Virus record (IMG/VR): IMGVR_UViG_3300049988_000286 | Location: 96,001-160,000 of that record | Strand: one strand, 5' to 3' | Origin: a virus | Taxonomy: Duplodnaviria; Caudoviricetes | Length of the DNA stretch: 64,000 bases | Shown here: positions 2,144-62,544 of the stretch, one piece after another | How positions within the stretch are numbered: the first letter of the stretch is position 1 | Layout: each line of letters begins with the position of its first letter | Notes under the pieces: model-generated | Database searches by the model: none | Told to the model about the DNA's origin: nothing | What the model saw: the letters and a program-made list of their open reading frames with translations, nothing else | Translations under genes and position numbers: made by a program

Positions 2144-2171
2144 GGGGGAGCGGACGGCCCGCTCCCCCTTT
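2144..2171. terminator. GC-rich hairpin between convergent genes
   Basis: GGGGGAGCGG/CCGCTCCCCC 10-bp stem followed by TTT, between rIIB and cca. Confidence 0.7.
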
Positions 2172-3303
2172 ACACACCAAGCATGTCGGTTTTGCCCAGT
2201 GTGTAATCCGATTCGATCCAGCGGCGGCGCGCATCCTTCATCCAGCGGCCGATCTCGACACCGGTGATGCCGCGCTCGATCAGTTCATTGCCCGAGACCG
2301 GGAAAGCAGGTGCCTCCCACGTCTCGATAAAGCGTCGGGTCAGGTCATCACCCCGCGTGGCGAGCAGCGCCGTGATGATCTCCACCGGGATACCTTCTAC
2401 GATATCGCGCTTCGCATCTCCGATCCCATATGGGGTCAAGAGTTTACCGACGATGAACGCGGCGGTCTTCTGCTCGACTTTGCTCCACTTCCACCGCTGA
2501 CCCAGCGCGAGCACCTCCTCACCACCATAGACAGCCATCAGCGCGGCGGGATTGCGTGAAGTCAGCCGAGCCTTGTCGAGAGCCGAGATGTCACCCTCCG
2601 GTAGACCAATCACGCGGCCCACGCCCGAGATGTGGATGAGTTTCAGCACCCTGTCAGCGTTCGGTCCCGCGATGATCTTCGAAATCTCCGCCCAGACACG
2701 CTCGACGCTGATCTGACGCAGATTGGGAGCCGCACGGGTGATCGCCCGCATCGCATCATAATCATTCAGGGGATCACCGAAGCGACCGTAGAAGCGGAAC
2801 CAGCGCAGCGCGCGAAGGTAATCCTCCGCGAGTCGCTCATCGGCATCGCCGACAAAGCGCACCCGTCCCGCTTCTACATCCGCGACACCACCGTGGGGAT
2901 CGAACATCGTGCCATCGAGCGCCATCGCGATGGCGTTCATGGTCAGGTCACGACGCCGCAGATCGTCACGCAGATCAAGGGTGTACTCGACGGTTGCGTG
3001 CCGACCATCGGTCTCGCGATCGATACGGTAGGTAGTGATCTCGTAGGGGATGCGATCGATCACGACAGTGATGGTGCCGTGGGCGAGCCCCGTCGCAACA
3101 TAGTTGTAGCCATGCTGCTCGTAGAGGGCGATCTGCTGATCCGGCGTCGCCGATGTGGTGAGATCGATGTCCTTGGGCGTGATGCCCAGAATGGAATCAC
3201 GTACGCAACCCCCGACAAGCCAAAGCTCGTATCCGGCTTCGACAAACCGCGCGTGCAGTTCATCAATTTCGGGCGGGAGGTTGAGAATATTGCGGTGGCT
3301 CAT
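2170..3303 (-). CDS. cca: CCA-adding tRNA nucleotidyltransferase / poly(A) polymerase family
   Basis: VGGCVRD, DIDL, EITTYR, DLRRRDLTMNAIA, RFVGDADERLAEDYLRALRWFRF class II NTase motifs. Confidence 0.92.
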   Translation of the reverse strand: MSHRNILNLPPEIDELHARFVEAGYELWLVGGCVRDSILGITPKDIDLTTSATPDQQIALYEQHGYNYVATGLAHGTITVVIDRIPYEITTYRIDRETDGRHATVEYTLDLRDDLRRRDLTMNAIAMALDGTMFDPHGGVADVEAGRVRFVGDADERLAEDYLRALRWFRFYGRFGDPLNDYDAMRAITRAAPNLRQISVERVWAEISKIIAGPNADRVLKLIHISGVGRVIGLPEGDISALDKARLTSRNPAALMAVYGGEEVLALGQRWKWSKVEQKTAAFIVGKLLTPYGIGDAKRDIVEGIPVEIITALLATRGDDLTRRFIETWEAPAFPVSGNELIERGITGVEIGRWMKDARRRWIESDYTLGKTDMLGV

Positions 3304-3347: not shown

Positions 3348-3962
3348 ATGCCCAAGAAGAAGACCCTCGCCTTCGATCGTAAAACTCGCCGTGCCCTCAA
3401 GGCATTCGTGCGCCCCCGCGCGCAAGATTGTGCGGATGAAAAGCCAATGCCAACCAAGACGAAGAAGCGTGTAAATTTCGGTAAGACAACCGCCGGAGCC
3501 AATTCAGCTACCAGCTATGAGCAAATCCTCTTGCCGCGTATCACCACGGACATCCTCGTCCACCCCTATGATACCCAGACCTTCGGGCACATGCACCTTA
3601 CGGTCTTCGCGCATCTATTCCCAAAGATCGACTACATTTTTGTGACGCGGCGCACAAAGGAGATCAGCAATGGCTATGAGGAGTCCTTGCAGCAGCTTGG
3701 CTTCTTCTCCGCGCGCGACTACGACACTTTCACGGATTGGCTAGAGGGATATCTGAAGAAATTCGGCCCGTGTACCGGTCATGCCTACCCGCCACCGATT
3801 GACGGTCACTACCCCTTCCATGCTCCGAGCAAGCCGCACAAGAGCTACGAGGAAGAGTGGCTGTGGATCATCGACAATTGCGCCGGTGAGGTCCGTCACG
3901 GTTCGAACCTCTGGCTGTTCGCCGACGAGGACGATGCTTGCCTATTCGAGTTGTGGAAGTGA
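3348..3962 (+). CDS. hypothetical protein with C-terminal W...F..EDDA..F.L domain
   Basis: 204-aa ORF ending WLFADEDDACLFELWK, the motif of the expanded small-protein family. Confidence 0.7.
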   Translation: MPKKKTLAFDRKTRRALKAFVRPRAQDCADEKPMPTKTKKRVNFGKTTAGANSATSYEQILLPRITTDILVHPYDTQTFGHMHLTVFAHLFPKIDYIFVTRRTKEISNGYEESLQQLGFFSARDYDTFTDWLEGYLKKFGPCTGHAYPPPIDGHYPFHAPSKPHKSYEEEWLWIIDNCAGEVRHGSNLWLFADEDDACLFELWK

Positions 3963-4453
3963 AGCCGGGGCTAGGGGCAGGTAGACGATCCTGCACGATG
4001 CTCATCGGACCGCCCGCGAGTGGAAAATCGACTTGGCGTGCGCGCGATACTACCAACGCAATCGTGATTAGTGGCGACGACATGATTGAGGAAGAGTGTC
4101 GGCGAACAGGGCTCACCTATGCGGAGGTCTTCCCCACGGTGTGCTTCAAGACACAGAAGCGTGCCCTGCATGAGCATTTCCAAGATGCGATCTTCAATCA
4201 CCGCAACATCATCATTGACCGTACCAATCTGACGATCAAGTCTCGGCGAAGCTTTCTCGCTTCGCTGCCACGCAGCTATGAGCGTATCGCGATTGTGTTC
4301 ACTGTCACGCCCTCGGTGTTGTTTGAACGATTGGAGCGACGCGGACAAGAGACTGGCAAGATCATCCCGCGCGAGGTAGTCGAGGACATGATGGCTCGAC
4401 TACAACCCCCAACGCGGGATGAGTTCGACACTATTGTAGAACTGAAAGACTAA
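3938..4453 (+). CDS. P-loop kinase (AAA_33 / polynucleotide-kinase-like)
   Basis: GPPASGKST Walker A, IIIDRTN, terminal PPTRDEFD. Confidence 0.8.
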   Translation: MPIRVVEVKPGLGAGRRSCTMLIGPPASGKSTWRARDTTNAIVISGDDMIEEECRRTGLTYAEVFPTVCFKTQKRALHEHFQDAIFNHRNIIIDRTNLTIKSRRSFLASLPRSYERIAIVFTVTPSVLFERLERRGQETGKIIPREVVEDMMARLQPPTRDEFDTIVELKD

Positions 4454-6237: not shown

Positions 6238-6314
6238 GCTCGTGTGGCTGAAATGGGAATGGCTACGGACACTAAATCCGTAAGATGTGGGTTCGATCCC
6301 CACGGCGAGCGCCA
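6238..6314 (+). tRNA. tRNA with CUA (amber) anticodon, atypical A33 and G7:G66 mismatch
   Basis: Cloverleaf: acceptor GCTCGTG/GGCGAGC, anticodon stem ACGGA/TCCGT with loop CACTAAA, T arm GTGGG-TTCGATC-CCCAC, encoded CCA. Confidence 0.8.
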
Positions 6315-8967: not shown

Positions 8968-9813
8968 TCATAGGAGGTGGTAGACCCGATAACCCCACGA
9001 CATCCCCAGCGTGAACATCGTCATATCCTCCCGAGACAGGAGAACCATGTTGCCCTCGATGTGGTATCTCTCCACTCCGAGTTCCTTGAGCAGCTTGGGG
9101 ATTTGATTCTTGAGTACCTGTGCGCCTCGTGCCGACGACGCGAACGCACCCGCGACTGGCGTTGGGATCACTTCAACTACCGCCCGGTAGGGATGGAGGT
9201 CATCGGACTTGATCCGGTTAGCCAATCCCCTGAACGCCGTCATGCGCCGACCCTTCATCTTCGACGGTCCGCTCAATTTCGCCATCAGATCGATGGTGGT
9301 GAGCCATTCCGGATGTGGGGTGATGGTCTCTACGACAGTGCCATCGAGATCGACCACGACGATCCGCACCACCGGCATCGGCCGCTTGGAATACTGGCGA
9401 AAATTGATGCGGATAATGTTCTGCTCCGCGCCAACGAGATTGGTGTGATGCAGCGCTCCATTGAAGTCACGCTCACTCCAGAAGCGCGTTGGTTGGGTCT
9501 CGTTAGTGCCCCACCAGAGCAATCCCTCCTCGTTCTCGACATAGTATTCGTGCGCAACCTCTCCGGCATCGAGCAGAGTGGCGTCGTGCAACTGCGAGGC
9601 ATCGACGAAGAGGTCCGCGTCCTTGAAACGCTTGCGCCGGGCACGCAGCCTTCCTTCCTCACGCCCAATGATCTTGATGCCGATCGTCCCCGATCCACGG
9701 CGAGGATAAGGGAGATGAACTTCGGTCCCGGCTGGCACGACGTGCGTCCCGGATGTCACTGCTGAATTGAGGAGCCAAGTCGAACCCTTGGTGAAACGAC
9801 GAATATCAATCAT
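8968..9813 (-). CDS. hypothetical protein (281 aa)
   Basis: Long ORF; C-terminal LLSREDMTMFTL is a weak match to the small-protein family motif. Confidence 0.65.
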   Translation of the reverse strand: MIDIRRFTKGSTWLLNSAVTSGTHVVPAGTEVHLPYPRRGSGTIGIKIIGREEGRLRARRKRFKDADLFVDASQLHDATLLDAGEVAHEYYVENEEGLLWWGTNETQPTRFWSERDFNGALHHTNLVGAEQNIIRINFRQYSKRPMPVVRIVVVDLDGTVVETITPHPEWLTTIDLMAKLSGPSKMKGRRMTAFRGLANRIKSDDLHPYRAVVEVIPTPVAGAFASSARGAQVLKNQIPKLLKELGVERYHIEGNMVLLSREDMTMFTLGMSWGYRVYHLL

Positions 9814-10072
9814 CAGCGATTTCCAGCTTTACGCGGCGGGCATGAGAGTAGGTGGTGGACAGTCGGAAGATCGCACGGTTGGCCTCAACCTCTTCCTTGG
9901 TCTCGCCGCGATAGATCACCATGTCCATCGAGGCGATTATGGCGACCCGGCACCATATGAGTTCTCGGGGGTGATCTGCGCACAGATTGTGAAAAATGTC
10001 GGCGGTATGGTGGCGATCTTCGTCCAGCATCTCTGTGGCGCGGCTAACCGCTACGGCATAATAATCATCCAT
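9806..10072 (-). CDS. hypothetical protein
   Basis: ORF overlapping both neighbours in an operon-like array. Confidence 0.6.
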   Translation of the reverse strand: MDDYYAVAVSRATEMLDEDRHHTADIFHNLCADHPRELIWCRVAIIASMDMVIYRGETKEEVEANRAIFRLSTTYSHARRVKLEIADD

Positions 10073-10334
10073 AGGCGATACTGGCTTCGCTCACGGCGGT
10101 ATATTGGTTCGCGAGACGGAACATGGTGCGGAGGTATTCGTGTTCCTCGGTCGGGGAACCGTAGGCTACCAATGTTTTGTCACTGCTGGATGAGAGTTGA
10201 CAGATCAAGCATGCATGGGTGCGGTCAATCACGACTAGGTTGTCGAAGAGATCGAACGAGCAAACCTCCGACAGTAGTTGGGCGGGATGCTTGAACGATA
10301 ACCCGATGACGACGGTGGAGACAGGGTTAGTCAT
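10065..10334 (-). CDS. hypothetical protein
   Basis: ATG 10334 after GGAGA, immediately downstream of the tRNA. Confidence 0.6.
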   Translation of the reverse strand: MTNPVSTVVIGLSFKHPAQLLSEVCSFDLFDNLVVIDRTHACLICQLSSSSDKTLVAYGSPTEEHEYLRTMFRLANQYTAVSEASIAYG

Positions 10335-10350: not shown

Positions 10351-10425
10351 TGGTGGGAATACTCGGATTCGAACCGAGGACACACGGTTTTAGGGACCGC
10401 TGTTCTACCGCTGAACTATACTCCC
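10351..10425 (-). tRNA. tRNA with CUA (amber) anticodon, atypical C33
   Basis: GGGAGTA-TA-GTTC-AGCGGTA-GAAC-A-GCGGT-CCCTAAA-ACCGT-GTGTC-CTCGG-TTCGAAT-CCGAG-TATTCCC-A-CCA; clean cloverleaf. Confidence 0.9.
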
Positions 10426-10434
10426 GATGTTGCC

Positions 10435-10463
10435 GAACTATCGCAAGAGATTCGGTTGGTCAA
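10435..10463 (-). promoter_or_regulatory. sigma70-like promoter of the tRNA (TTGACC-N17-TAGTTC)
   Basis: -10 element ends 10 nt upstream of the tRNA 5' end. Confidence 0.55.
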
Positions 10464-10522: not shown

Positions 10523-11005
10523 ATGGAAATCGAAACTCCCTCTTACTGGGTCGCGGTTGGCGCGCACGGTGCGCAGCCCTACGCTGATGGCACGCACGTC
10601 GATGTCCATCTGCGGGCAGTGGTGGAGATACTCGTCAGCTTCAACTTCTGCGCACAGTTCTGGATCGACGCTGGGTGGCTCCACGACACCGATGAGGATA
10701 CCGCCTTCAAGGTAGCGCAGACCCGTCTGCGTTTCGGCGACATGACGGCCGACCTCGTATGGGCGGTCACGGGCGTGGGCGACAATCGTCGCGAGCGCAA
10801 TGCATCCATCTACGAGAAGATCGCCGCCTTTCCGCGCGCCGCCATTCTCAAGACCGCCGACCGGATCGCCAACCTGCGGTCCTCGAAGGTCCACGCACCG
10901 TCGCTGTTCCGCATGTACCAGAAGGAGGCCTCGACCTTCGTCCCGGCGGTGCGCGATCACATCCCAGAGGAGATGCTTGCGGCCTTGATGGAAGCCCATC
11001 AGTGA
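10523..11005 (+). CDS. HD-domain hydrolase, RelA/SpoT (Mesh1-like small alarmone hydrolase) type
   Basis: AH.AQ, HLRAV, AGWLHDTDEDT, ILKTADRIANLR. Confidence 0.8.
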   Translation: MEIETPSYWVAVGAHGAQPYADGTHVDVHLRAVVEILVSFNFCAQFWIDAGWLHDTDEDTAFKVAQTRLRFGDMTADLVWAVTGVGDNRRERNASIYEKIAAFPRAAILKTADRIANLRSSKVHAPSLFRMYQKEASTFVPAVRDHIPEEMLAALMEAHQ

Positions 11006-11768: not shown

Positions 11769-12305
11769 TTATGCGGCCTTTGACTTCGGACGCAACTCCG
11801 CGACGCCACCTTCGGTGATGGTCAGTGCCACGCCGCGAAAGCGCAACATTCCCCGCGTCGAGCCCTCTTCGAGTTCTCGGGTGGAAAAGCCCATCTGCGC
11901 ATCGATGTGCGGGCAATAATACGACTTGCCGTTCGCCTTGACGGTCCAGCGCGGCATGAAGGGAAAGGTATTACTCACCACGTTGTAGTGGACATCGACC
12001 GTCCGCGCCTCCACCGCGAGGGGGAAGAGCGCTGTCTGTTCGCGCATCTGGGCGTGCATGGCCCGGATACGGTCGCGCAAGACCTTGGCCTCCCCCAAGA
12101 GCGTCATGAGTTTGCGGGCGTCGGCGCGCTGGTAAGCCAATGCTTTCTGTTTGGTGGGGTCACCACTACGCTGCGCGGCCTTCACCTCCAACTTCCTACG
12201 GCGGATGTCGGCGCTGATATGCTGATAGACGGTCTTCCATGTCTTTCTCCAAGCCTTGTAGCCTTCGCGATCGGTGAACTGGGGTTTGAGAGCATAAACG
12301 GACAT
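11769..12305 (-). CDS. hypothetical protein, coiled-coil N-domain paralogous to 12502-12759
   Basis: FTDREGYKAWRKTWKTVY versus FNDRTTYLAYRRNWKLAY. Confidence 0.7.
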   Translation of the reverse strand: MSVYALKPQFTDREGYKAWRKTWKTVYQHISADIRRRKLEVKAAQRSGDPTKQKALAYQRADARKLMTLLGEAKVLRDRIRAMHAQMREQTALFPLAVEARTVDVHYNVVSNTFPFMPRWTVKANGKSYYCPHIDAQMGFSTRELEEGSTRGMLRFRGVALTITEGGVAELRPKSKAA

Positions 12306-12501: not shown

Positions 12502-12759
12502 TCATGCCGCCACCTTGGCGTCACGCTCGGCCTCCCACTGATGCTGCGCCTCGACGCGAGCCTCGACGAGTTCCGCGAGCATGTGGCGCGCATCCCGGCG
12601 CAGATACTCGCGAGTCATCTGGAGGCGACCCTGCTCCGGCTGCGCGGCGGTTTTCATCTTTGCCTTGGTGTCGCGGATGGTCTGGCTCAACTCCTTGTAG
12701 GCGAGCTTCCAGTTGCGGCGGTAGGCGAGATAGGTGGTGCGGTCGTTGAAAGCGTTCAT
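12502..12759 (-). CDS. hypothetical coiled-coil protein
   Basis: RBS GAGGA; paralog of the 11769-12305 N-terminus. Confidence 0.7.
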   Translation of the reverse strand: MNAFNDRTTYLAYRRNWKLAYKELSQTIRDTKAKMKTAAQPEQGRLQMTREYLRRDARHMLAELVEARVEAQHQWEAERDAKVAA

Positions 12760-13152
12760 GATTGATTTCCTCGTAGTTGTTGATTGACGAAAGAGATGAT
12801 CAACGGATCATCGGTCAGGGACTTGATTTTCTCCAAAGCTTTTCGCCAGCTTTCTGCACGGTGCCAAAGCTCAAAGCCCGTGCGCTGCAACTGTGTTATC
12901 CGGTCATTGCTGCTCTCCATTATCGCCACCGAAGTTCAAACAAGGTGAAGTCGTGATCTCGCAGGTAAATCGCCTTGTCATTCTTACAGGCAAACTCCAC
13001 CCCGTTCGCCAAACACCATTCAAGGTATTCGGCGAAGCTGTGCTTCGACCATGGTTCTTTACGAGTCGCGATCTCGTGGAAGGTGCCCCAGAGATCGACG
13101 AGATAGCCTTTCGTCCGAAAGTGGACGGTCTAACGGCCGGGTAGGATCAACT

Positions 13153-13569
13153 TCATAATTCGAGTCCTCCAAATCTGATCTTGAACAAGATGATATCCAT
13201 CTCCTGTTCCATCATGATCCCCTGTGAGTAAGAGCAGCCGCCCTCGCTCCAGTTGACGCGACGGAACTCACCGATGGCATTCTCGGCGAGCCATTCATCG
13301 ATGGCGAGATAGGCGGGATAGCCGCACATGATGCGGATGAGCGCCCAACCCGTGGGCGTCTGCATTTTCATCTTACGGAGACAGGGTTTGTCTTCGTAGA
13401 GTTTTTCGTCTTCGGCGAAGAAGGCATCGTGGCCTCCCTCGTTTGAGGTAAGCATGATGTTCTCCAAACGCGAAAAAGCCACCACGGCCCGATCGCTCGG
13501 AACCATGATGGCTTTATTGATATACGGAATAGTCGCCGAGATCGCGGGAGCGATCTGCGCAATCGACAC
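13153..13569 (-). CDS. hypothetical protein, small-protein family domain
   Basis: EWLAENAIGEF...MEQEMDIILFKIRF. Confidence 0.6.
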   Translation of the reverse strand: MSIAQIAPAISATIPYINKAIMVPSDRAVVAFSRLENIMLTSNEGGHDAFFAEDEKLYEDKPCLRKMKMQTPTGWALIRIMCGYPAYLAIDEWLAENAIGEFRRVNWSEGGCSYSQGIMMEQEMDIILFKIRFGGLEL

Positions 13570-13679
13570 GTTGCCCGCCGTGCGGGTCAGGGTCTGGATC
13601 GAGGGGGCGAGCTACGTCATGGGTTGTTTATGAGGCCTTGTTCGGGTTTCGTCAATAGAAAAGTTCGCTGATGATGAAT

Positions 13680-60430: not shown

Positions 60431-60768
60431 GATATCGAATTCGCTGCTTCGTTGGAGACGGCAATAGAGAAGGCATCCGAGTAGGCGTGACGGACACGCT
60501 TCTCATCGGCGGGATCGTAGAAGGTCGCGCTCAAATCATCCCAGCCCGCCCTACCGCACAGTCGGCGAAGTCGGAACAACTGTCGCGCAACCTTGATCGA
60601 CCCCGCTTCGAACGGTTTGATCGCCCGCAGGAAATAGGGCGTTTGGAGAGTCAGGGTATGGCGATCCCACCCCAGATTCGGCATGTTGGCGAAGATGAAG
60701 TCGAGGGCTTCGCGGCCGATCTCGACTTCATCCCCGCTACGCTTCAGGCTAAACTTGGCTACCTTCAT
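60427..60768 (-). CDS. hypothetical protein
   Basis: ATG 60768 after GAGGGA, overlapping the LysRS 3' end. Confidence 0.55.
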   Translation of the reverse strand: MKVAKFSLKRSGDEVEIGREALDFIFANMPNLGWDRHTLTLQTPYFLRAIKPFEAGSIKVARQLFRLRRLCGRAGWDDLSATFYDPADEKRVRHAYSDAFSIAVSNEAANSIS

Positions 60769-62476
60769 TGGCGATCCCTCGCAATAGATCAACTGTTTCT
60801 CTGATACCATACATGGCGGTGAAGGCACCGAAGCGCGGCCCCGACTCCTGACCCAAGACAGTCTCGTAGAGGGTCCGGAACCAATCACGCAAGCGTTCCT
60901 TGCCGAAATGTGCCTTCCCGACTTCGTAGACCTCGAACTGGATCATCTCCTCACCGGATCGTACACCCACCGCCCACTCGGGCAAGGGTTCAGCCAACAA
61001 CTGGAGGAACCGCGTGCCATCGGGATTAGCGCGATGCGCATAGGTGACATCCCCGAGAGACATACCATCAAGACGATCGGCGAGATCAAGCATCGCCACA
61101 CCTTCCTCCGGCGTGGGCAAGCGACGCGCCAGCTTCCCGGCGAGGAAATCCTCGTAATAGTTGAACGCGTGATCGATCAACCAACCGAGTTCCTCCTCCA
61201 AGGCATCGCTCATCACCGGAGTAACCCGCGACGCATAGGAGTGGAGACGCGCCTTACTGTCCACCGCCGCCGTCTGGGCGATGTTGAGCAGAAGCTGATA
61301 CGAGACCGGGAGACTTCCTTCGGGAACACCGGCGTGGACGTGGTGGACCGCATTGCCGAGACGCTGCTCCGAGGTCTGTTCCGCGTAGCGGCGACGCGCG
61401 TCGCGATAGTCCTCCTCCGCCTGAACGACGACGGCGGGATAGAGCTTCTTCGCCCGCTGCGGCTCACGGTAGAGGTAGGCGGCAAGGCTATCCTGCGAGC
61501 CGTAGCGGAGCCACTGCTCCATGGTGAGCCCATTGCCCTTCGACTTGCTGATCTTGCCGCCGTGCTCGTCGAGGAACATCTCGTAGATCATCGTCACCGG
61601 CGGGCGTCCCCCGATCGCACGGACGATCTTCGACGATAGCGTGACGCTATCGGTCAAGTCCTTGCCCGCCATCTCGTAATCGACGCCAAGGGCGAGCCAC
61701 CGCATCGCCCAGTCAGCCTTCCACTGACACTTCACGTTGCCGTTGCGAATGTCCCACATAACATCGCCAAGGCGATCGATGCCCCATTCAACGATCCGGA
61801 ACCGCCCGTCGTCCCGCACTGTCTTATACCAAGGCCCGCGACCGTAACTGACATCGATCACGCCAACATAGTTGGGGTTTGAGGTCACGCCCTCATTGAC
61901 GACATGGCCATCCTCCATGATGGGCATGAACGGCGAATAGGTGGCGCGACGCTCCTCCCCCAGCGTGGGAGCGATGATGCCGCGAACCTTGTCGTACTGG
62001 GCGTCGATGGCAAGCAGGGCGTCGTTGAAGCGGCCGGAGTTGTAGGTCTCCGTCGCAGACATGAACTCGTAGTCGAACCCGAAGCGATCGAGAAAGTCGC
62101 ACAGCATCGCGTTGTTGGCGTGAGCGAAACTCTGGTGGCGACCGCTGGGATCAGGGACGCGGGTGAGCGAGTATCCGAGCCACGGCGCGAGTGAGGCTTG
62201 TGCCTCCTCGGACAGATTTGTCGGGACACTCCGTAGAGCGTCCATGTCGTCGCTGAAGACGATCAGGCGCGTGCCGGCGTTGCGCGAGAAACCCATGAGG
62301 TCTTCGTAGGCACGGCGAACCATCGTGGTGCGCGCCACTTCGGCGAAGGTGCCGATGTGAGGCTGCCCCGATGGTCCATACCCGCACTCGAATACTACGT
62401 CGCGACCCGTGATGCCCCGCTGGGCGATCTTGCGGGCCTCAACGTACGGCCATGCCTTGCTCGACTGATAATCCAT
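60749..62476 (-). CDS. lysS: class I lysyl-tRNA synthetase
   Basis: AWPY.EA, CGYGPSGQPHIGT (HIGH-like), KCQWKADWAMRW, GKDL, KISKSKGN (KMSKS), GPRFG. Confidence 0.95.
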   Translation of the reverse strand: MDYQSSKAWPYVEARKIAQRGITGRDVVFECGYGPSGQPHIGTFAEVARTTMVRRAYEDLMGFSRNAGTRLIVFSDDMDALRSVPTNLSEEAQASLAPWLGYSLTRVPDPSGRHQSFAHANNAMLCDFLDRFGFDYEFMSATETYNSGRFNDALLAIDAQYDKVRGIIAPTLGEERRATYSPFMPIMEDGHVVNEGVTSNPNYVGVIDVSYGRGPWYKTVRDDGRFRIVEWGIDRLGDVMWDIRNGNVKCQWKADWAMRWLALGVDYEMAGKDLTDSVTLSSKIVRAIGGRPPVTMIYEMFLDEHGGKISKSKGNGLTMEQWLRYGSQDSLAAYLYREPQRAKKLYPAVVVQAEEDYRDARRRYAEQTSEQRLGNAVHHVHAGVPEGSLPVSYQLLLNIAQTAAVDSKARLHSYASRVTPVMSDALEEELGWLIDHAFNYYEDFLAGKLARRLPTPEEGVAMLDLADRLDGMSLGDVTYAHRANPDGTRFLQLLAEPLPEWAVGVRSGEEMIQFEVYEVGKAHFGKERLRDWFRTLYETVLGQESGPRFGAFTAMYGIRETVDLLRGIANEGSQV

Positions 62477-62544
62477 TAATGACTTCCCCAATCGACCTTG
62501 GCCTTCAAGTTCGGTATGCCACGACGCGGAGGGTATGGCAAGCG

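Follow-up and report, generated by a model that had tools for sequence, protein, structure and literature searches.

The CUA-anticodon tRNA gene on the minus strand at positions 10351–10425 of the window (the whole 64,000-nt stretch of phage DNA considered here) appears, on balance, to encode a dedicated and probably weak amber suppressor with a conserved target: an operon that begins at 13620, 2.7–3.2 kb upstream of the tRNA on the same strand, and that would be opened by UAG readthrough blocking transcription termination. Suppressor tRNAs of standard-code jumbo phages have so far been reported without targets; here there is a concrete, conserved candidate. Such targets have been overlooked, their stops lying so early (within ten codons of the start) that gene callers choose a later start or leave the gene out. 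If this reading is right, the leader would be a natural transcription attenuator under stop-codon readthrough control, and possibly a step toward full recoding. The odd base in the anticodon loop, C33, is itself of minor interest.

The sequence at 10351–10425 is a real tRNA gene: read from 10425 to 10351, it forms a complete 75-nt cloverleaf with an encoded CCA. Its score against the Rfam model RF00005 is 64.8 bits (gathering score 29) with no broken pairs, the top score among 43 RF00005 matches in the 499,572-bp phage genome. The 7-nt anticodon loop reads C32 C33 C34 T35 A36 A37 A38 on a GCGGT/ACCGT stem, and the acceptor stem has G1-C72, G2-C71, and G3-C70, with A73. The letters and the RF00005 fit thus confirm the cloverleaf of the initial annotation, with its CC-CTA-AA loop, and the anticodon stem, GGG/CCC acceptor, and A73 are all present as it had them. 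U33 is nearly universal in tRNAs; this one has C33 instead (window 10394). As far as can be tested, this is not an assembly error, because the reads are uniform and the same arm occurs elsewhere: in the probable source run, which is not independent, one contig covers the gene at a depth of about 51 with no alternative letters, and the identical 16-nt C33 arm is found in tRNA genes of unrelated phages.

The anticodon stem had been said to resemble tRNA-Trp. The stem is as described, but it is no sign of a recent Trp origin, the arm being common in phage CUA tRNAs: GCGGT/ACCG with U33 is found in at least 117 phage CUA tRNA loci. The 16 tRNAs nearest to this one are all CUA tRNAs (among 716 compared, a sample enriched for CUA tRNAs by the way it was collected), while the Trp-like and Lys tRNAs of the same genome reach no more than 45 and 44.5 of 75 when compared with it. 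A tRNA-Trp identity is ruled out by the anticodon (CUA, not CCA), base 73 (A, not G), the first pair (G1-C72, not A1-U72), and these nearest relatives. Other loop registers (Arg CCU, Leu UAA) were rejected because they break the anticodon stem. ARAGORN labels the gene tRNA-Pyl, with which it shares the CUA anticodon; alignment to the standard model rejects this, since it has an ordinary cloverleaf with a 5-bp rather than a 6-bp anticodon stem, a normal rather than a small D loop, and a variable loop of 5 rather than 3 nt.

The promoter proposed upstream of the tRNA, TTGACC-N17-TAGTTC, is present on the minus strand at 10463–10435. Alone it is a weak match, unlisted by an E. coli consensus scan; the TTGAC is conserved, at unchanged spacing, upstream of the CUA tRNA in seven of eight related loci. 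Divergent from the tRNA is a gene for an HD-domain protein resembling small (p)ppGpp hydrolases (10523–11005, plus strand), and an HD-domain gene is also found near a CUA tRNA in loci L138, L141, L143, L149, and L151. In the window the HD gene seems to have no leader; TTGACC-N17-TATCCT precedes it, back to back with the promoter of the tRNA. Downstream of the tRNA are three genes (89, 88, and 281 aa; 8968–10334, minus) with no in-frame TAG and no family or fold match found; the 281-aa gene follows the tRNA in four relatives.

Comparison with related phages separates the anticodon from position 33. Eight loci, reached via the neighboring HD gene, gene A, and the 178-aa gene (the last two in the operon), hold CUA tRNAs beside these genes, in nine copies, all with U33. 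In the closest relative (82% nucleotide identity) a different tRNA body occupies the same place, with the same loop apart from U33; across the related loci the body turns over fast while the loop stays, and acceptor stems and base 73 differ among orthologous CUA tRNAs. Selection on the CUA anticodon is thus supported by the comparison. The convergence on, and selection for, a non-U33 loop suggested by the initial annotation is not. Besides the nine U33 copies in relatives, the window's first CUA tRNA (6238–6314, plus; 39 bits, with a G7:G66 mismatch) has an A33 (window 6271) that is T in contigs from two independent runs of close strains (X2 and X4), and is therefore specific to this strain. 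Of the refutation that the annotation had set for itself, canonical anticodons in relatives and variants that are mere assembly errors, the anticodon part fails, CUA being kept, while the part concerning position 33 holds, the relatives having U33.

The C33 form of the arm occurs in seven tRNA-like loci of the collection that holds the U33 forms, and in one further metagenome lineage. Its share of CUA tRNAs is at most about 6% (with at least 117 U33 loci in the denominator), and C33 is found in 25 of 501 (5%) other phage tRNAs of the same loci; a broad C33 scan gave only two further CUA tRNAs in 118 mostly chance matches. In L003, L004, and L023, genes with an early TAG are found close to the C33 copies. 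The second CUA tRNA of L138 has U33. Both CUA tRNAs of the present strain lack U33, vs. one of the 38 other tRNAs in the genome, and a weakening or relaxation in this phage's lineage is possible. C33 is a mostly incidental lineage variant, whose effect is probably to lower efficiency but not to abolish it. Work in the Uhlenbeck and Yarus labs in the 1980s reportedly found partial activity of U33C tRNAs; a literature search largely limited to open-access papers found nothing relevant on the size of the effect. C32-C33 loops also occur in phage tRNA-Ser(UGA), Glu(UUC), and Gly(UCC) (L047, L063, L092, L098, L085, and L086), several of them on a CGGT/ACCG stem.

The proposed target is preceded by a promoter, TTGACG-N17-CATAAA (13626–13655, minus), of the class found at this phage's codon-matched tRNA leaders. 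The leader itself (13456–13620, minus) is leaderless in the sense of starting directly with ATG ACG TAG, with the TAG at 13614–13612, followed by 52 open codons in the frame of gene A. Among nine lineages, whose proteins are only about 46–63% identical, the TTGA, the ATG, and the TAG at codon 3 are invariant (9/9), and codon 2 varies. Past the TAG this frame stays open as far as gene A in every one of the nine, and the other two frames are closed in 18 of 18 cases; the chance of an open frame is 0.03–0.24 per locus (the lineages are not independent). It is fused in frame to gene A in six of the nine lineages, and ends on the gene A ATG in the other three. Inside the leader, at 13473–13515, is an intrinsic-terminator-like hairpin with a T run (z = −6.0, matched by 0 of 200 shuffles). 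Eight lineages have a consensus stem in which 6 of 12 pairs are changed on both sides, in compensatory fashion; the hairpin of L147 differs, and the T run is 5 long in this phage. The locus thus has two features of a ribosome-coupled attenuator, a translatable leader between promoter and first gene (in all nine lineages) and a hairpin with a U run. A genome-wide scan for a leaderless ATG-NNN-TAG behind TTGAC, with a frame of more than 50 codons, gave this as the sole case.

Gene A (13153–13455, minus) has its own GGAG and ATG and encodes about 100 aa, of a small protein family expanded in this phage; its homologues align only with residues ~60–151 of the leader fusion. Gene B (12920–13156, minus; 78 codons) is GGAGG-led and has an in-frame TAG at codon 9 (13132–13130) with no later in-frame ATG. 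This TAG is at codon 9 in six of eight orthologues, kept there at 30–41% protein identity, at codon 44 in one (L150), and absent in one (L148). Since it can relocate within the gene, these alignments suggest that the presence of the stop matters, rather than the residue inserted. Next come a conserved 54-aa gene (12756–12920, minus; seven orthologues, 49–59% identity), an 85-aa gene (12502–12759, minus), and a 178-aa gene (11769–12305, minus) encoding a helical hairpin and a beta domain, the most conserved payload. The 85-aa gene is paralogous to the helical N-terminal half of the 178-aa one, and other phages have genes like it in the vicinity of CUA tRNAs (L004, L031, and L089). Searches of the operon genes with Pfam, PHROGs, NCBIfam, Foldseek, VIA-align, and a protein atlas yielded generic helical-hairpin matches and no function. 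No further convincing TAG-gated genes beyond the leader and gene B were found genome-wide; weak candidates are at genome positions 269796 and 486039 (minus) and 54570 (plus).

In the switch we propose, a ribosome would initiate right at the 5′ end of the transcript and reach the UAG at codon 3. By default RF1 would release it, leaving a bare transcript on which the hairpin and U run could form, and transcription would stop. Where the charged suppressor wins at the UAG, the ribosome would trail the polymerase through the 5′ arm of the hairpin, and transcription would go on. Gene A would then be made as a fusion to the leader or by way of coupling, while gene B would require a second readthrough at codon 9, making a double lock. 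The switch would gauge charged suppressor relative to RF1 activity, and could act as a post-infection delay or as a detector of failing termination. The tRNA, having its own promoter, would be an input to this switch, and not obviously its product. Of the suggestions made in the initial annotation, low-level UAG readthrough is still the best reading.

The sensor version is a doubtful but specific extension: the weak suppressor would lose to RF1 in healthy cells and win when a host defense or stress cripples release at UAG, turning on a doubly amber-locked counter-measure operon by antitermination. If so, the phage's codon-by-codon monitoring of translation would extend from sense codons to a stop codon. 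A link with translation stress is hinted at by the neighboring genes: the window has a (p)ppGpp-hydrolase-like gene, the cultured relatives have Pth2, and L143 has a gene resembling that of a release factor, interrupted by a TGA. The last (L143:3386–4042, minus; GGQ, without the N-terminal domain) has one in-frame TGA after 33 codons and a short leader in front of it, with two CUA tRNAs at a distance of about 2 kb; it is a candidate readthrough-gated release factor.

The leader might instead sense stalling, with a ribosome waiting at the UAG, when RF1 is scarce or blocked, covering the post-TAG segment and freeing an antiterminator, as in the phage's codon-matched tRNA leaders; the tRNA would then serve chiefly in rescue and in reading gene B. 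Five such codon-matched leaders in the genome share the promoter class and leaderless start of the amber leader, and the segment at or after the TAG pairs with a pre-terminator segment in the window, L138, L144, L145, and L149; in L147 this segment itself forms the 5′ side of the stem predicted there. This pairing, suggestive of a trp-type antiterminator helix in four to five lineages, is absent in others, and for the first-segment duplex most lineages show no advantage over shuffles. In folding calculations with nt 1–22 blocked, the terminator still forms with P 0.9–1.0 in all nine lineages, and sequestration of its 5′ arm rises in five and falls in four; the base of the hairpin opens only with a ribosome over that arm. 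These predictions favor readthrough over stalling, for which the long open frame after the TAG would also be superfluous, and we consider a stall sensor unlikely. A relaxed or decaying copy, largely disabled by C33 and free to drift thanks to the second CUA tRNA (U33 in close strains) in a system perhaps fading here, is a less likely account again. It would fit with C33 being found in none of the related loci, the C33 and U33 pairs of L004 and L023, the presence in this position of another, D-arm-poor tRNA body in the closest relative (82% nucleotide identity), and the strain-specific A33 and acceptor mismatch of the first tRNA. It does not sit well with the top covariance score in the genome, the intact promoter and CCA, the retention here of both TAG gates, or the same C33 arm in distant phages, where it is sometimes apparently on the only CUA tRNA: a pattern search found no other in three complete genomes, though it overlooked known copies in G005, so that “only” is not fully reliable. 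The body in the closest relative (L151:267–335, minus) is a 69-nt CUA tRNA-like gene with CCA, either decayed or a non-canonical suppressor.

Readings without a decoding role, as a decoy or nuclease-evading tRNA or as a private substrate of the phage's class I lysyl-tRNA synthetase (LysRS1), had also been put forward, and are very unlikely. They could draw on the quick turnover of the tRNA body around a constant loop, the only positive evidence for a decoy or for nuclease evasion, and on the loss of U33 from both CUA tRNAs of the strain, and they leave the conserved TAG gates unexplained; nor would there be a host CUA tRNA for a decoy to mimic. The GGG/CCC-A73 acceptor is like that of tRNA-Lys, and the phage encodes LysRS1 at full length (60749–62491, minus; 601 bits to PRK00750); class I LysRS normally prefers U36. 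The synthetase gene is 51 kb from the tRNA and far from the three Lys tRNAs, and the co-occurrence expected of a cognate pair is lacking in five complete phages that carry suppressor tRNAs, in none of which LysRS1 was found (G003–G005, which have C33 CUA tRNAs, Phosso, and Atu_ph07). Together with the variable acceptor stems and base 73 of the orthologues, this argues against LysRS1 as the purpose of the tRNA. Phage tRNAs with altered loops have been proposed to evade anticodon nucleases, with position 33 unmentioned (PMC10264068). In E. coli amber suppressors U35 and A73 lead to insertion of Lys (PMC9976931), and by these rules Lys is a tentative best guess for the residue inserted at UAG, although its identity is probably immaterial. 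Genome-wide reassignment of TAG (of the code 15 type) is scarcely tenable. CUA tRNAs with the same arm are common in apparently recoded phage loci, with coverage gains of up to about 0.4, but here coding coverage barely rises with TAG read through (0.838 to 0.857), genes end in TAG in every 50-kb bin, and no release factor gene was found in the phage genome. The phage is not recoded, and its code is otherwise standard. TAG terminates about 89 of its 762 called genes, with 3′ extensions not shorter than for other stops (p = 0.44), so suppression must be weak.

The readthrough switch we favor may have counterparts in cultured phages. Sinorhizobium phage Phosso and Agrobacterium phage Atu_ph07 carry homologues of the 178-aa gene (41% and 35%, respectively), and to judge from these relatives the host of the present phage is probably an alphaproteobacterium. 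In both, the homologue closes a three-gene unit headed by a stop-interrupted Pth2-type hydrolase gene, annotated from an internal ATG with an SD-led start upstream (L270:6190–6684 in Phosso, PV764938.1; L271:6217–6666 in Atu_ph07, MF403008.1). The type of stop matches the type of suppressor. Phosso Pth2 has a TAG at codon 4, in a genome with two CUA tRNAs; Atu_ph07 Pth2 has a TGA at codon 7, and the phage carries a UCA suppressor tRNA, with no target named (PMC6102473; the tRNA rests on that report, and our own search did not locate it). A CUA-like pattern match in Atu_ph07 was rejected as not being a CUA tRNA. In Phosso, the tRNA at 171983 whose annotation reads “Undet” has a CUA anticodon. 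The present phage's own Pth2 (genome 391966–392289) has no in-frame stop, and Pth2 was not found in three other C33-CUA phages. With a related operon in cultured Phosso and Atu_ph07, gating is directly testable.

The trpL/hisL, pyrBI, and pyrE leaders are ribosome-coupled attenuators, and in the pyrBI/pyrE type the ribosome runs through the hairpin. The amber leader resembles them in being a translated leader overlapping an intrinsic terminator ahead of an operon; it would differ in having a stop codon as control codon, a dedicated tRNA, a leaderless start, and frequent fusion to the first gene, and from the trp type in that no consistent antiterminator helix was found. Stop codons serve as control points in other systems as well: prfB is autoregulated by frameshifting at an in-frame UGA, and TnaC and SpeFL are leaders that stall at stop codons. 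In these, too, competition at a stop codon sets downstream expression, by frameshifting or ligand-induced arrest rather than by the in-frame readthrough by a phage tRNA proposed here.

Among phages, the standard-code jumbo phage XacN1 has two CUA suppressors with no target identified, although its authors extended annotated genes past their stops (PMC5852040). XacN1 and Atu_ph07 (PMC6102473) are like the present phage in being code-11 jumbo phages with suppressor-anticodon tRNAs, in two copies; they differ in that no target was named there, while here there are early stops, at codons 3 and 9, that gene callers skip. In TAG-recoded crAss-like and Lak phages, suppressor tRNAs have been proposed to regulate timing (bioRxiv 10.1101/2021.08.26.457843). 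There too, genes with in-frame TAGs can be expressed thanks to a CUA tRNA of the phage, but in the present genome nothing is reassigned, two gates were found, one of them apparently transcriptional, and TAG is still a stop. A synthetic “leak dampener,” a suppressor-tRNA feed-forward loop that cuts leaky expression (PMC7969014), likewise combines stop codons in the regulated gene with a suppressor tRNA; it is engineered, whereas the arrangement here is natural and adds a terminator. A search of the literature, for the most part of open-access papers, found nothing relevant on an amber-sensing attenuator or a suppressor-gated phage Pth2.

Several smaller observations concern tRNAs in this genome and elsewhere. 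Just before the first amber tRNA are an ORF that by eye reads like a CCA-adding enzyme (window 2170–3303, minus) and a polynucleotide-kinase-like gene (3938–4453, plus), in what looks like a tRNA maintenance neighborhood. Many of the genome's tRNAs of normally short-armed types (Asn, Gln, Glu, Cys, Arg, Met, and Ile-TAT) have long variable arms, the Trp-like tRNA (402970–403045) has a poorly paired anticodon stem, and no Phe or Asp tRNA was found in the set. Two different CUA tRNAs occur close together in many apparently standard-code phages (L004, L015, L023, L025, L029, L031, L045, L058, and L083), often near an early-TAG Pth2-like or hydrolase-like gene.
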